Virus genome (UHGV): UHGV-0128973
Strand: one strand, 5' to 3'
Length of the DNA: 64,000 bases
From: a virus
The notes under the pieces were generated by a model. It made no database searches, had not been told where the DNA came from, and saw only the letters and a list, made by a program, of their open reading frames with translations. The position numbers were made by a program, and so were the translations under genes. The number at the start of each line of letters is the position of its first letter. The stretch's first letter is position 1. Shown piece by piece: positions 14,356-35,846 of this stretch.

Positions 14356-14384
14356 TTGACCTTTTAATCGTTCAGGCTTATAGT
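14356..14384 (+). promoter_or_regulatory. Sigma-70 promoter for the c4-icd-ant operon.
   Basis: TTGACC, a 17-nt spacer, then TATAGT, located upstream of c4. Confidence 0.6.
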
Positions 14385-14504
14385 TCCGCCGTCGTAGCAA
14401 ATTCTGCGACCGGGTTTAGCAGCCTGAATGTTAGTGCGGACAACCGCAGATATCCGATATTGCGGTATTTTTGTGTCCGTAAAACCGCGTTACGCCCAAA
14501 TTAT

Positions 14505-14581
14505 GGTGGGGCGTGATGGGGAGGCTTCGGCCTGCTGGTTTCACTAACGCCAGTCTGCTAACCCCGTCACGTCCTGCCACC
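14505..14581 (+). ncRNA. c4: c4 antisense repressor RNA (77 nt).
   Basis: The 5' GGTGGGGCGTGATGGGG pairs with the 3' CCCCGTCACGTCCTGCCACC. Loop sequences CACTAAC and CTGCTAA are complementary to GTTAGTG and TTAGCAG, which occur upstream (14413-14440) and over the icd RBS (14583-14625). The length matches the P1 c4 RNA. Confidence 0.75.
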
Positions 14582-14631
14582 TGTTTAGCAGCGGGTAGCA
14601 GGTTGTTAAACCTGTTAGTGAGGCCGTAACT

Positions 14632-18020: not shown

Positions 18021-18084
18021 TACAATCGTTGCGGGTGCTTGAGGCTATCTGCTTCAGGTATTACCCGAAAAGCAGATAGAAGAA

Positions 18085-18152
18085 AGCCCCAGATAACATT
18101 ACGCGTCCTGCAAGACGCTTAACATTAATCTGAGGCCATATCTATGCTTAGC
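18085..18152 (-). ncRNA. sok: Sok-like antisense RNA (approximate bounds).
   Basis: A minus-strand promoter (TTGACC, 18 nt, TAATCT; the -10 is the complement of 18159-18164) is positioned like the R1 sok promoter, opposite the mok translation start region. Confidence 0.4.
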
Positions 18153-18350
18153 ATACGTAGATTAGCCTCTTACCGACCAAAAGGTCAAGGAGAAGCAGGC
18201 TATGAAGCAGCAAAAAGCGATGTTAATCGCTCTGATCGTCATCTGTTTAACCGTCATTGTGACGGCACTGGTAACGAGGAAAGACCTCTGCGAGGTACGA
18301 ATCCGAACCAGCCAGACGGAGGTCACTGTCTTCACAGCCTACGAATCTGA
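18144..18350 (+). CDS. mok: Mok-like overlapping reading frame (68 aa).
   Basis: This ORF overlaps hok in the arrangement typical of hok/mok/sok loci. The leader GCCTCTTACCG...AAGGAGAAG resembles R1 hok mRNA. Confidence 0.5.
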   Translation: MLSIRRLASYRPKGQGEAGYEAAKSDVNRSDRHLFNRHCDGTGNEERPLRGTNPNQPDGGHCLHSLRI

Positions 18351-31259: not shown

Positions 31260-32157
31260 GCACTGGAAAAACATTACTATTTATAAACTTTCTCGTGAAG
31301 CGGATCTGACCGACTTAGAAGATAAAAAGAAAATGATCCTTTTCACGCCATGCGGTAGTCAGGATATGGCCAAGTTCGGTTTTGTATCTCCATTTGGTGA
31401 TAATTCCGAAGTTATCGCTATGCATGGAAATGGTTTTATCCTTGTTGAAGCAAAGCGCGAAACAAAAATCCTTCCCCCGCCGGTTATCCAGCGAGCTATT
31501 CAAGAAAAAATTGAAAAACTCGAGCAAGAACAAGCGCGTAAACTGAAGAAAACAGAGAAGGACTCCCTGAAAGACGAAGTTCTGCATTCTCTTCTGCCAC
31601 GGGCGTTTTCAAAGTTTTCTGTTATCCAGGCGATCTACGACGGTTCAACTAAACGTATCTATATCAATGCCAGCGCGCGGCAGGCAGAGGATATGCTCGC
31701 GCTTATGCGTAAATCTCTGGGTTCTCTTCCTGTTGTTCCCCTAAGTGTTGAAAATCCCATTGAATTAACGCTGACCGACTGGGTACGTGATGGTAGTGCT
31801 CCACAGGGATTTCAAATGGGGGATGCGGCAGAACTTAAGGCAGTGCTTGAGGATGGCGGTATTGCCCGAGTGAAAAAGCAGGATTTGGGAAGCGATGAAA
31901 TTTCCACACACCTGGAAGCTGGCAAGCTCGTTACTAAGTTGGCACTCGACTGGCAGAACCGCATTAAATTTACACTGGACCATAACTTCAGCCTTACCAG
32001 CGTCAAATTTGCGGATGAATTGCTTGAGCAGAACTCTGATATTGATAGTGAAGATGTTGCGCAGCGACTGGACGCAGATTTCTTCCTGTTGACCAGTGAA
32101 ATTTCGTGCCTGGTTGATGCTCTGGTAAATGCCCTTGGTGGAGAGGCTAAGCAGTGA
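31252..32157 (+). CDS. hrdC: RdgC-homologous recombination-associated protein (301 aa).
   Basis: Starts [13 protein letters not shown], which is RdgC-like. Its length matches E. coli RdgC (about 303 aa). The longer ORF-track start at 31138 overlaps uhr. Confidence 0.75.
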
Positions 32158-34418
32158 AAGAGCTGTGCTATGGATCTGTTTGCAGTGGAATTGAAGCCGC
32201 GAGTATTGCCTGGGAACCGTTGGGTATGCGTCCGGCGTGGTTTGCTGAAATCGAGCCTTTTCCATCTGCCGTTCTTGCGCACCGCTGGCCCCATGTCGCC
32301 AACCTTGGCGACATGACAAAACTTGCCAAAAAAGTCCTGGCTGGGGAAATCGAATCCCCTGATGTGCTCGTCGGGGGTACGCCTTGTCAGGCATTCAGTA
32401 TCGCGGGCTTACGTGGTGGGCTTGATGATGAACGCGGCGCGCTAACTTTGAAGTATGTGGAGCTTGCAAATGCAATTGACGACAAACGGTCTGAGTCCTT
32501 CCTCAAACCGACAGTTATCGTCTGGGAAAATGTCCCAGGAGTCCTGTCATCGGCAGATAACGCCTTCGGATGTTTCCTTGCCGGATTGGCTGGAGAAGAT
32601 GCGCCATTTGAACCAGGTGATCGACCTGAATCAGGAAAAAGTAACGCGTTCTGGCGGTGGGATGGCAAAACCGGTTGCCATGCTCCAAAGTGGCCGCAGT
32701 GTGGTTGTATTTATGGACCGCAGCGAAAGGTGGCCTGGAGAATCCTTGATGCCCAATACTTCGGAGTGGCACAACGACGCCGACGCGTGTTTGTTGTCGC
32801 AAGTGCTCGAACAGACCTCGATCCCGCAACGGTACTTTTTGAGTTCGAAGGCGTGCGCCGGAATATTGCGCCGAGCCGAAAAAAGAAGGAAATCGCTTCC
32901 GCCATTATTGCAAATGGCGCTGCAATCAGTGGCGAAAGCCTAAATCCATGCCTACACGCTGACATGCCACCCGGTATGAAATCGACGAAAGCCGTAAACG
33001 CTTTCAGGATGGCGGCATTTGGGGAATATATTGACGATGAAACCGCATCGACAGTAAAGGCAAGAGATTTTAAAGATGCCACTGACCTTGCCGTTTTTAG
33101 CAGCACAGGAGCAGGTTTTTGGTCAGAAGGGCATGGTACATTGCGGGCACGTGAGCAAGAAAGCCATGAGCATCTTGTTACATTGGCTTTTCCTGAGCGT
33201 ATGAGCGGTACACAACATGCTGCAACTAAGAATACTTCACCATCTCTAATGGCTAAAAATCCAACAGCTGTATGCTATGAAGTAAGAAACGCAGAAGTAG
33301 CTGTCCGCCGTCTTACCCCTGTCGAATGTGAAAGGCTGCAAGGTTTTCCTGATGGGCATACGTTGATCCCGACGGAAAAGCGTAAAAAAGTTAATTCAGA
33401 TGAACTGGCATATCTTCGCAATCACTATCCAGATTTAAGCGAAGAAGAGGCCGCGATGCTTGCAGCTGACGGACCGCGTTACAAAGCGATCGGCAATAGT
33501 ATGGCAATACCAGTAATGTGCTGGATTGGCGATCGGATTACTAAGGCCGTATGTCGGCAGAAAGAAGGAAGTGAAACAAAAGAGCGAAAAGTTAAACCAG
33601 CGGCAGAATTCGAACGGTCCATATTCAAATGGGCTGGTGGAAAATTTGGTGTTCTGGAACAAATCTTTCGCTATTTGCCAGAAGGGAAGCGCCTGATTGA
33701 ACCTTTCGTTGGTGGCGGAGCTGTCTTCATGAATGCCGGATACCAGGAAAATCTGCTAAATGATGTGAATGCTGACCTGATTAACTTTTACAAGACTCTG
33801 CAACGCGAGGCGCATTCACTTATCACTCTGGCACATCGTTTCTTCCAGGACTACAACACGCAGGAAGGATACCTGGCAGTACGGAATGCGTTTAACAAAC
33901 AAGTCTATGATGATTTACATCGCGCAGCGGCGTTTTTGTTCCTGAACCGACATTGTTTTAACGGATTGACGCGTTACAACCAAGCCGGTGAGTTCAATGT
34001 CGGTTATGGGAAGTATAAAACTCCGTATTTCCCATTGCAGGAGATGGAAGCCTTCCTTGGTGCGGAAGGGCGTTCTGAGTTTGTATGTGGTGATTTTGCT
34101 GCGGTGATTGAAGCTGCCGGAGAAGGAGATGTCATCTTTTGCGATCCGCCGTATGAACCGCTCCCAAATACAGAGGGATTCACGAACTATTCCGGTCATG
34201 ACTTTAAGTTTGAAGAGCAAAAACGCCTGGTGTCTCTGTTGACGGATGCTCATCGCCGAGGTGCAAAGGTTCTCATTACTAACAGTGGCGCGCCAAACAT
34301 CAGAGAACTTTATCAGGACAGTGGCTTCAGAGTGGAACCTCTTTTTGCCAGACGTTCTGTGTCTTGTAAGGGGGACACTCGAGGTGTTGCTCATGACGTT
34401 ATAGCAATATTGCTCTAA
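32154..34418 (+). CDS. dmt: Bifunctional DNA methyltransferase Dmt (754 aa): an N-terminal C5-cytosine MTase-like domain plus a C-terminal Dam-like N6-adenine MTase.
   Basis: N-terminal motifs [23 protein letters not shown] and QRR.R. C-terminal motifs [16 protein letters not shown] and DPPY. Confidence 0.9.
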
Positions 34419-34436
34419 TAAATTTATTAGTGTAAT
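34409..34436. promoter_or_regulatory. Bipartite, overlapping inverted C1 operators (probably Op72) at the ban operon promoter.
   Basis: ATTGCTCTAATAAATTT (34409-34425) overlaps the inverted AAATTTATTAGTGTAAT (34420-36). A TAATAT -10-like hexamer lies inside. Confidence 0.75.
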
Positions 34437-34444
34437 ATCGCCTC

Positions 34445-34628
34445 AATGAATCGTGATTTATAGAGCGATTTAGCTGTTAGCCGCGACAGGCGCGGCGGCA
34501 AGTATGGCGGGGTAGTGACTCCTTCCCCCTCATGACGCCGAGTTGCCAGGTTGACCATACGCCTAAGTGGCAACACCGAAGTGCGTTACGAGCTTCCAGT
34601 TTGCCCATCTTCGGGTGGGCGTTTTTTT
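34445..34628 (+). ncRNA. Candidate structured leader RNA or sRNA of the ban operon, ending at an intrinsic terminator.
   Basis: No ORF. Successive hairpins (CCGCG-ACAG-GCGCGG; GTTGCCA...TGGCAAC) precede the terminator. The 5' end is inferred from the operator/promoter position. Confidence 0.35.
34603..34628 (+). terminator. Strong rho-independent terminator inside the ban operon leader.
   Basis: GCCCATC-TTCG-GGTGGGC (UUCG tetraloop) followed by GTTTTTTT. Confidence 0.75.
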
Positions 34629-34811
34629 CAGGGTTTTCGTCATGGTTAGCGACTTTGCGGCGGTTTAGAAACTGACCATTAAAGTAAATGCAAACGATGA
34701 TCTGATGATGGTAGCGGCCTAAGAAGCCAGACGCCACGGGGTATGAGTCGTCCCCCGTCAAAAAATCGACCGCAGAGTGTCCCCGTCTGTGTATTAGGGA
34801 ACGGGGAGGCA

Positions 34812-34888
34812 CAACAGGTAAGGGCGCTGGTGTGATTAACCAGATGAACGAGAAGGGGCCATCTGTTGGTCAGCGTCCTTTCCTGTTG
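34812..34888 (+). ncRNA. Conserved long-hairpin element, copy A.
   Basis: CAACAGGTAAGGGCGCTG...CAGCGTCCTTTCCTGTTG. The stem sequence is shared with copies B and D. Confidence 0.4.
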
Positions 34889-35093
34889 CGTCTTCTTTTC
34901 AGCGTAACAGCGGTGCTTAACAGCACTTTGGGTACAGTTCCACGAATTTACGGGTATATCCCGTCATGCTGAAAGCGCTAATCACGCTGGAAGCCAGGGT
35001 TATGCATCCCCTGTTACCGAATTGCAGCCAGGGCGCGGTGCGCCGAAAAGCATACGGAGGTGGAAGCCCTCGCCGGAGACGTACCCGGCAAGT

Positions 35094-35168
35094 GATGGTG
35101 TAGCTCAGCGGTAGAGCAGTTGGCTGTTAACCAACTGGTCGGTGGTTCGAATCCACCCACCATCGCCA
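35094..35168 (+). tRNA. trnA: tRNA-Asn (anticodon GTT), CCA encoded.
   Basis: Acceptor GATGGTG/CACCATC, D-arm GCTCAGCGGTAGAGC, anticodon loop CTGTTAA, T-arm GGTGGTTCGAATCCACC. Confidence 0.9.
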
Positions 35169-35173
35169 ATTTA

Positions 35174-35260
35174 GGGGAGTTAGTCCGTAGGGGTAGCGGG
35201 GTAGACTGTAAATCTACTGTCATTGCGACTCGGGTGGTTCGACTCCATCACTCCCCACCA
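35174..35260 (+). tRNA. Class II tRNA-Tyr-like gene (anticodon GTA, long variable arm), CCA encoded.
   Basis: Acceptor GGGGAGT/ACTCCCC, anticodon stem-loop GTAGA-CTGTAAA-TCTAC, variable arm TGTCATTGCGACTCG (compare E. coli tRNA-Tyr CGTCATCGACTTCG), T-arm GGTGG-TTCGACT-CCATC. The D-stem is weak at 3 bp. Confidence 0.7.
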
Positions 35261-35264
35261 AATT

Positions 35265-35340
35265 GCCGGTTTAGCTCAGTTGGTAGAGCAGTCGCTTTGT
35301 AAGCGAATGGTCAGCGGTTCGATCCCGTTAACCGGCACCA
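35265..35340 (+). tRNA. trnT: tRNA-Thr (anticodon TGT), CCA encoded.
   Basis: Acceptor GCCGGTT/AACCGGC, D-arm GCTCAGTTGGTAGAGC, anticodon loop TTTGTAA, T-loop TTCGATC. Confidence 0.9.
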
Positions 35341-35343
35341 ACA

Positions 35344-35426
35344 CAACAGGTAAGAGCATTTGTAGAGTTCGACTCTCTACCGTGGGCTTTTTCCCGCGAT
35401 GCGAGCCATAAATGCTCTTACCGTTG
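35344..35426 (+). ncRNA. Conserved long-hairpin element, copy B, with an internal T-arm-like hairpin.
   Basis: CAACAGGTAAGAGCATTT...AAATGCTCTTACCGTTG encloses GTAGAG-TTCGACT-CTCTAC and CGTGGG-CTTTTT-CCCGCG. Confidence 0.4.
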
Positions 35427-35573
35427 TGATGAAGTGCAGCTCTTAGAAGCAACCAGAAGATAAGCATCTGGCTTCACAACATAAACCGCAGGAACGACCA
35501 ATAAACGGTAGTCCGTATGGAGAACACCCCGTTGAGGAAGAGGCCTGGCCGGAACCGTAACCGGCACTACAAC

Positions 35574-35655
35574 GTTGAGAACACTGGCGTAACGGGGTCA
35601 TATCCCAATCTACGAATAAATGTTGCGTTGCAGCGTGACAACCAGTGTTCTCAAC
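35574..35655 (+). ncRNA. Long-hairpin element C carrying the ACGGGGTCATATCCCAATCTAC motif.
   Basis: A perfect 14-bp stem (GTTGAGAACACTGG / CCAGTGTTCTCAAC) encloses the motif at 35592-35613. Confidence 0.4.
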
Positions 35656-35846
35656 ATTGTGGTGAATGCACAGGCTGATGTGCCGCAACTACAGTAGTGC
35701 GCGCTTTGCGGGGCTTGCTACAACCCTGTGTCGGAGTTCAGCACCGACCATCACAGTTTGATTCTCTGGCATGAGCATAACGCTGAAATAAGTCCAGCCT
35801 GGTGCGGCCCGATCACCCGCCGTTAGCTCCACGAAACGGAGCACGT

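Follow-up and report, generated by a model that had tools for sequence, protein, structure and literature searches.

A T5/T6-type tRNA-Tyr gene in P1-like phage-plasmids of Escherichia coli that is absent from laboratory P1

UHGV virus genome UHGV-0128973, of which we analyzed a stretch of 64,000 nucleotides (nt) as a whole (referred to here as the window), has the gene layout of phage P1 around its tRNA genes and carries, between tRNA-Asn and tRNA-Thr, a tRNA-Tyr gene that laboratory P1 does not have. As a gene it is ordinary, and the useful outcome is comparative. Judged by the genomes and plasmids compared here, most wild P1-like phage-plasmids of Escherichia coli carry this T5/T6-type tRNA-Tyr, and laboratory P1 represents a minority haplotype with only two tRNAs at this place. 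We describe the identity, the fold, the lineage, the distribution, and the operon position of the gene, which can be observed directly, and from these we infer how it may be expressed and charged and how it may benefit its carrier against host defenses.

Sequence, fold, and lineage of the tRNA-Tyr gene

The original prediction, made from the letters of the window, described an 87-nt class II tRNA-Tyr(GUA) gene that follows tRNA-Asn after a gap of 5 nt and precedes tRNA-Thr by 4 nt, and it proposed ARAGORN as a check. ARAGORN calls a tRNA-Tyr(gta) on the + strand at exactly 35174-35260, and the Rfam tRNA model RF00005 agrees, scoring the gene at 41.9 bits where the gathering score is 29 (E = 1.7e-5 over all 64 kb of the window). 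The gene and both spacers were therefore predicted correctly. The window contains four tRNA genes, and each of them is matched by both ARAGORN and the Rfam model:

35174..35260, + strand: tRNA-Tyr(GUA), class II, 87 nt, CCA encoded (ARAGORN, Rfam, minimum free energy cloverleaf, covariation, and 100% identity to annotated tRNA-Tyr)
35094..35168, + strand: tRNA-Asn(GUU), 75-nt allele (ARAGORN, Rfam 75.5 bits, allele comparison)
35265..35340, + strand: tRNA-Thr(UGU) (ARAGORN, Rfam 67.2 bits, allele comparison)
36773..36848, + strand: tRNA-Ile2 with anticodon CAU, labeled Met by ARAGORN and equal to P1 trnI (ARAGORN, Rfam 59.1 bits, P1 annotation)

The features that had been listed for the tRNA-Tyr are all present. 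The acceptor stem, GGGGAGU/ACUCCCC, is followed by the discriminator A73 and an encoded CCA, the anticodon GUA is placed in the 7-nt loop CUGUAAA with U33 and A37, and the T loop is UUCGACU. The long variable arm, GUC-AUUGC-GAC, forms a hairpin. The identity set of bacterial tyrosyl-tRNA synthetase (TyrRS) consists of G1-C72, the discriminator A73, and G34/U35. This set is complete in the window gene, which has G1-C72, A73, and G34-U35-A36 together with the long variable arm.

The unusual part of the molecule is the D arm, which had been described as weak, with a stem of 3 bp including a G-U pair. The stem is actually one of 4 bp, CCGU/GCGG, with one U-G pair, and it comes after a connector of 4 nt (UAGU) that takes the place of the standard 2-nt connector at positions 8-9. 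Infernal, the unconstrained minimum free energy fold, and covariation concur on this structure. In the Infernal alignment, 2 nt are inserted after position 9, and CCGU pairs with GCGG around the canonical loop A14-G-G-G18-G19-U-A21. Covariation was determined with 14 sequences, namely, the window gene, three plasmid alleles, the genes of T6, RB18, and the rV5-like phage LL12, two T5-type genes, and five metagenomic viral genes. These five metagenomic sequences were chosen because they fit a model with a 4-nt connector, but the compensatory change present in T5 is independent of that choice. Over the whole set the cloverleaf is 97.9% paired and 16 of its 24 pairs vary on both sides, a result matched by none of 500 shuffles. 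In the variable arm the helix is 92.9% paired and contains two pairs in which both sides vary. Pairing is complete (100%) in the CCGU/GCGG stem, where one pair occurs as C-G, as G-C, and as U-A, the last of these in T5 itself. The D stem of 2 bp drawn by ARAGORN (G10-C, U11-G) was rejected, as it is 57% paired across the relatives compared to 100% for CCGU/GCGG.

A scan of 117 viral tRNA-Tyr genes gave 85 with the standard connector of 2 nt and 10 that can be fitted only by the model with the 4-nt connector. Because of this minority group, and because the stem covaries, the seemingly weak D arm is a conserved lineage trait and not a sign of decay. The suggestion that it could mark a nuclease-resistant variant or a decoy finds no support either, since the same covarying trait is shared with the tRNA-Tyr of T5. 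A note in the T5 record states that this tRNA is an effective amber suppressor once its anticodon has been changed, which is indirect evidence that tRNAs of this lineage are charged in vivo. The minority architecture combines a 4-nt connector, a class I-like 4-bp D stem, and a D loop of 7-8 nt with a long variable arm; it is found in the window gene, in T5 and T6, and in the genes with our labels L045, L069, L072, L098, and L059.

A pseudogene, or a nonfunctional tRNA-like remnant, is an exceedingly improbable interpretation. The Rfam score is lower than the 59 to 75 bits of the neighboring tRNAs, ARAGORN gives the D stem just 2 bp, and the thermodynamic z-score of -0.67 is unremarkable. However, the long variable arm and the 2-nt insertion explain the lower score, the alternative 4-bp D stem is fully paired with compensatory changes, and a z-score of this kind is uninformative for a tRNA. 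Moreover, U8, A14, G18-G19, A21, U33, A37, T54-Psi55-C56, G53-C61, A73, and CCA are all present, and the gene is conserved across hundreds of plasmids. We consider it very probable that the window gene is a functional tRNA-Tyr.

Sequence comparison places the gene in the T5/T6 lineage of phage tRNA-Tyr. Its identity is 93% to the gene of LL12, 92% to that of RB18, 89.7% to that of T6, and about 84% to that of T5, compared to about 71-74% to E. coli tyrT, and more than 1,500 phage records contain a relative. The tyrT reference was verified at 100% in all 5,426 E. coli genomes, which have a median of 3 tRNA-Tyr copies. Over the segment that spans the variable arm and continues to the end of the T arm (UGUCAUUGCGACUCGGGUGGUUCGACUCCAUC), the window gene is identical to that of T5, and the variable arm GUCAUUGCGAC, with its loop of 5 nt, is common to the window, T5, T6, RB18, and LL12. 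The GUC-A cleavage context at positions 46-49 is also present.

Several known genes can be set beside it. In the T-even phages T6 (AP018814, 66468-66554) and RB18, the tRNA-Tyr is 87 nt long and has the variable arm, the GUC-A context, and the 4-nt-connector D arm of the window gene, and in RB18 it adjoins tRNA-Asn in the order Ile-Tyr-Asn. T6 is a virulent phage whose tRNA-Tyr gene has the SegB homing endonuclease as its neighbor and becomes amplified under selection, whereas the window belongs to a temperate phage-plasmid with the gene in a repressor-controlled operon and with no endonuclease found nearby. The tRNA-Tyr of T5 (NC_005859, 35340-35427) shares the D-arm architecture, with a compensatory change from C-G to U-A. 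It differs in having its own very strong promoter, in being part of a large tRNA-rich region, and in its acceptor and anticodon stems. The E. coli tRNA-Tyr (tyrT/tyrV/tyrU) has the same anticodon loop CUGUAAA, G1-C72, A73, a class II variable arm, and the GUC-A context, but its connector has the standard 2 nt, its D stem 3 bp (CCC/GGG), and its D loop 11 nt. The variable hairpin of the host is GUC-AUC-GAC, with a loop of 3 nt, and that of the window gene is GUC-AUUGC-GAC, with a loop of 5 nt. Nuclease-evading phage tRNAs with anticodon-loop mutations have been described (van den Berg et al. 2023), whereas the loop in the window is identical to that of tyrT. Relatives of the gene are contained in further records. 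Records labeled Campylobacter phage, such as that of A147 (MG065644, 87419-87505), have a tRNA-Tyr with 93% identity, and the 137-kb "plasmid" pRHB39-C03_2 (L135) has an rV5-like Arg-Tyr arrangement. These are probably genomes of rV5-like coliphages that were mislabeled or misclassified.

Two forms of the tRNA block

In reference P1 (NC_005856), both the annotation and ARAGORN give tRNAs for Asn, Thr, and Ile(CAU) only, the three that P1 had been said to carry. P1 shares with the window the operon, the position, and the flanks, C1 operator and promoter included, which are about 98% identical, but it has no Tyr gene. Asn and Thr are 2 nt apart in P1, and a clean alignment gap of 91 nt lies opposite the Tyr gene and spacer of the window. 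The gene is also absent from P7, D6, SJ46, and others. It had been proposed that this was either an overlooked or an extra gene. Compared to P1 it is indeed extra, but it was not overlooked, as P1 does not have it and PGAP labels it in plasmids. The databases already annotate it, with identical copies in hundreds of RefSeq plasmids and a single Punavirus genome. A 100% identical gene is annotated as tRNA-Tyr in the Punavirus vB_EcoM-Ro157c2YLVW (MH160767), and another is annotated in plasmid pB2C_96 (NZ_CP035876), which has a different backbone.

Of 356 complete E. coli genomes with the locus, 262 (about 74%) contain the full block, Asn75-Tyr87-Thr76, and PGAP labels the middle gene as tRNA-Tyr. 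In PLSDB the tRNA-Tyr is present in 244 plasmids, 230 of them from Escherichia, 7 from Shigella, 6 from Salmonella, and 1 uncultured. None of the 211 Klebsiella plasmids matching the Asn/Thr block has it.

The two forms differ in more than the Tyr gene. The tRNA-Asn of the window, which is nearest to Asn of the N4 type, shows 8 differences from P1 trnA. About 10 positions separate the tRNA-Thr of the window from P1 trnT, and many of the differences in the two genes are paired changes in stems. The upstream flank, on the other hand, is identical at 300 of 300 positions to that of the P1-type plasmid pDETEC1, which has the two-tRNA block. A simple insertion of 91 nt into a P1 background was rejected, as the flanking Asn and Thr alleles differ too. 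Because these alleles differ alongside the presence of Tyr, it is the whole block that was replaced, and the gene was gained by exchange of the block and not by a simple insertion. With respect to a microhomology deletion in P1, ATT/AATT is common to the junctions, but the product expected from it is off by one base, and the alleles are different in any case. In pCP53-113k (L136, 206-281), the tRNA-Thr is a mosaic, with an anticodon arm of the P1 type and a T arm and acceptor of the window type, and by sequence this allele shows that recombination occurs inside the tRNA block. Taken at the level of sequence, two haplotypes of the entire tRNA block circulate and recombine.

The block is not restricted to one type of element, as Asn-Tyr-Thr was found on the backbones pB2C_96 and CMS-2020a. 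In pB2C_96 (L003, 5001-7321), the identical block lies beside SNF2 and VRR-NUC genes, and an extra tRNA-Ser and a gene of the Thoeris anti-defense Tad2 family are present about 1.5 kb downstream. This hints that the tRNA region of pB2C_96 collects counter-defense cargo. N4-like phages have an Asn-Ser-Thr layout with the same spacers of 5 nt and 4 nt (AATT) as in the window, and their Asn allele is identical at 72 of 75 positions, but the class II tRNA in the middle is a genuine tRNA-Ser(UGA). Because its stems are unrelated, the idea that it is an anticodon-switched homologue of the Tyr gene was rejected. The N4-like podovirus 3HA13 (L004, 1501-1750) is an example, with a tRNA-Ser(UGA) between Asn and Thr and a near-identical Asn allele. 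On these alignments, the gap between Asn and Thr behaves like a slot in which unrelated phage families place class II tRNAs, Tyr in the P1-like elements and Ser in the N4-like phages, and it may be a conserved one.

The substitutions among plasmid alleles of the tRNA-Tyr fall in the D loop, at position 26, or in the variable loop, or they preserve a pair (C to U giving G-U). In p2018-11-1BCC_2 (NZ_AP027904; L134, 115-201), the variable arm has changed from GUCAUUGCGAC to GUUAUGGCGAC, with C48 replaced by U and pairing kept as G-U. As C48 is the reported cut site of the Septu defense system, this allele could be an escape variant, or the change could be due to chance.

The ban operon and other features of the window

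The gene order around the tRNAs is that of P1, with Dmt, the tRNAs, TciA-TciB-TciC, trnI, and Ban. The neighboring features are as follows:

32154-34418: bifunctional Dmt methyltransferase (P1-like gene layout)
34409..34438, + strand: C1 operator Op72ab / Obanab, which overlaps P1ban and P2ban, the promoters of the ban operon (position inferred from an alignment with annotated P1)
34602..34628, + strand: terminator-like hairpin with a T run, at the end of the P1 "dicF-like" region (terminator scan, P1 annotation, alignment)
36073..36769, + strand: tciA (TerB family), tciB (DUF3927), and tciC, downstream in the same operon (Pfam TerB 28.4 bits, DUF3927 104 bits, P1 annotation)
37129..38499, + strand: ban, DnaB-type helicase, the distal gene of the operon (Pfam DnaB_C 360.7 bits, DnaB 120.9 bits, P1 annotation)

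The 700 bp upstream of tRNA-Asn is about 98% identical to P1, including the C1 operator, the ban promoters, and the dicF-like region. In the operator region, the window equals P1 over ATTGCTCTAATAAATTTATTAGTGTAATAT, where the P1 annotation places the operator and the promoters. By this comparison the tRNA cluster belongs to the C1-repressed ban operon. From P1 biology, the cluster should be expressed upon infection or induction and silent in a lysogen, and a cluster that is silent in lysogens could not protect them from colicins. The terminator-like hairpin sits between the ban promoter and the tRNAs. A dedicated promoter scan of 34350-35500 found none, but it also missed the annotated ban promoters of P1, so the scan is insensitive. 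At or just upstream of the start of the dicF-like region, the segment 34508-34537 is strongly diverged from both P1 and Ro157c2YLVW, with nearly identical flanks.

Other structured RNAs are present in the window. Directly 3' of tRNA-Thr, at 35339-35430, a long inverted repeat (CAACAGGUAAGAGCAUUU...AAAUGCUCUUACCGUUG) forms a hairpin of -44.4 kcal/mol with a z-score of -6.6, and none of 200 shuffles was as stable. It encloses a T-arm-like element, GUAGAGUUCGACUCUCUAC. Judged by its predicted fold, this hairpin may serve as a signal for processing or termination, or it may be what is left of a tRNA. Between the tRNAs and tciA, sub-threshold Rfam matches of the microRNA-precursor type on both strands of 35554-35674 point to a further long hairpin. 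A sub-threshold match to the small RNA STnc100 is found at 35919-36039 (37.8 bits compared to a gathering score of 47). Farther away, 18033-18207 contains a full-length sok antitoxin RNA of the hok/sok type I toxin-antitoxin system (114 bits); reference P1 is known for phd/doc rather than hok/sok. At 14378-14430 and 14499-14584 there are the C4 antisense RNA and its a1/b1 target sites, an immI region typical of P1 and P7.

Possible advantage of carrying the tRNA-Tyr

Published work on retron-Eco7 and Septu concerns tRNA-Tyr of this lineage. The PtuAB effector of retron-Eco7 depletes the tRNA-Tyr of E. coli, and T5 and SP15 escape by means of their own strongly expressed tRNA-Tyr (PMC11555353), the case of T5 being one that the original prediction had named. 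Host tRNA-Tyr placed under a phage promoter likewise rescues infection from retron-Eco7 (PMC11555353). Septu Ec-B88 cleaves E. coli tRNA-Tyr in the variable arm, at C48/A49, and the tRNA-Tyr of T6 at C48 (PMC13096335). Overexpression of the T6 tRNA-Tyr, or its SegB-driven amplification, restores infection under Septu (PMC13096335). The tRNA-Tyr of T5 is reported to resist retron-Eco7 owing to its distinctive variable loop (PMC13096335).

In the P1-like element, the sequence of events might be the following. Once C1 repression is lifted by infection or induction, the tRNA cluster would be transcribed as one precursor, which RNase P and 3' trimming would cut at the 5-nt and 4-nt spacers. As CCA is encoded, no CCA addition would be needed, and the host TyrRS would be expected to charge the product, for which the bacterial identity set is present. 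The phage gene would then add to the tRNA-Tyr pool during lytic growth. Where a host aborts infection by means of a PtuAB-type nuclease, that of Septu or of retron-Eco7, which cuts tRNA-Tyr in its variable arm, the phage tRNA may replenish tRNA-Tyr or serve as a decoy. By analogy with these phages, a counter-defense benefit is in our view the most likely selective advantage of the gene, and we judge it to be an evenly balanced proposition. More specifically, and only tentatively, we suggest that P1-like elements of Escherichia, Shigella, and Salmonella took up a tRNA-Tyr of the T5/T-even/rV5 type to evade PtuAB-type (Septu, retron I-A) or other tRNA-Tyr-cleaving immunity during lytic growth. 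A counter-defense supply had been predicted, and it is plausible given that the gene is of the same lineage as those of T5 and T6 with an identical variable arm, but the route would lead through PtuAB and the variable arm and not through anticodon nucleases.

A number of points weigh against a role in counter-defense. Rescue from a PtuAB system that cleaves tRNA-Tyr is on record for T5/SP15 and T6 only. P1, without the tRNA-Tyr, is a widely used laboratory phage on E. coli, and we know of no tRNA-Tyr-targeting system that is triggered by P1-like phages. We found no description of the tRNA-Tyr of P1-like elements in the literature searched. Retron-Eco7 is described as T5 specific, and Septu Ec-B88 mainly restricts Demerecviridae and some T-even phages. 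The main text of the Septu paper (PMC13096335) does not mention P1 or temperate phages. Rescue depends on high dosage, through a very strong promoter in T5 (PMC11555353) and through gene amplification in T6 (PMC13096335). In the window, no dedicated promoter was detected by the insensitive scan, and a terminator-like hairpin lies upstream of the tRNAs. Furthermore, as the near-identical tRNA of T6 is itself cleaved by Septu, intrinsic nuclease resistance, as had been envisaged, is not implied, and any benefit must come from dosage.

A possible but rather doubtful alternative is general translational supply, in which tRNA-Tyr would be raised during lytic growth to meet codon demand or host tRNA decay, without any specific defense system. 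In 51 long open reading frames (ORFs) of the window, Tyr codons are used at 29.7 per 1000, compared to an E. coli average of about 28.6, ACA at 14.4, and ATA at 11.3. ACA and ATA stand at about 2 to 2.6 times host use, and Tyr is roughly at the host average. Codon compensation thus fits the neighboring Thr(UGU) and Ile(CAU) tRNAs, but because Tyr codon use is close to the host average, it does not fit Tyr. The proposal that the gene serves something other than codon-usage adjustment agrees with this, as Tyr codons, unlike ACA and ATA, are not overused. In addition, E. coli has a median of three tRNA-Tyr genes and a single isoacceptor for both Tyr codons, so no rare codon would be rescued, and P1 does without the gene. 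Several late-gene-sized ORFs with 4.6-6.3% Tyr nevertheless speak for supply, and codon compensation is the classical explanation for phage tRNAs (PMC10264068, PMC11555353).

It is unlikely that the Tyr gene is a near-neutral passenger, one that came with an exchange of the tRNA block via the conserved Asn and Thr sequences and persists without much benefit. The distinct haplotype on identical flanks (300/300 upstream bases equal to pDETEC1, with Asn and Thr differing at 8-10 positions), the plasmid with a mosaic Thr allele, the block on the different backbones pB2C_96 and CMS-2020a, and the tRNA-Ser in the same slot of N4-like phages, with the same spacers, would all be consistent with it. 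Against it speak the presence of the haplotype in about 74% of the E. coli genomes having the locus, substitutions that avoid stems or preserve pairs, and canonical tRNA features that are all intact. The absence from 211 Klebsiella plasmids suggests host-linked selection, although shared ancestry could explain it too.

The version put forward in the original prediction, in which a Tyr/Asn pair next to the tci genes acts against colicin E5-type nucleases and the odd D arm is a resistant variant or a decoy, is very improbable. In its favor, tRNA-Tyr and tRNA-Asn are neighbors in the window as in T-even phages, and the annotation of P1 refers, on grounds of homology, to colicin resistance for tciA. 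Yet the anticodon loop CUGUAAA is that of the host tRNA-Tyr, so there is no escape mutation in it, and the known defenses that target tRNA-Tyr cut the variable arm and not the anticodon. The operon is C1 repressed, and it is lysogens, in which it should be silent, that are exposed to colicins. TciA is a TerB-family protein, and its link to colicins is a name transferred by homology to TerB. The D arm is conserved and covarying in a lineage that includes the T5 tRNA-Tyr, described in the T5 record as an effective amber suppressor after an anticodon change. Colicin E5 does target Tyr, His, Asn, and Asp tRNAs, as cited in PMC10264068.

Whatever the advantage, the variable arm found in about three-quarters of the complete E. 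coli genomes having the locus is the one studied in the work on retron-Eco7 and Septu. If a role in counter-defense is true, it would be the first tRNA-based counter-defense in a temperate phage-plasmid, and it would explain why the laboratory P1 haplotype is in the minority in E. coli. This raises the question of tRNA-based immune evasion in temperate phage-plasmids, which are important carriers of resistance genes. It also means that host-range results obtained with laboratory P1 may underrepresent the capabilities of wild P1-like elements.

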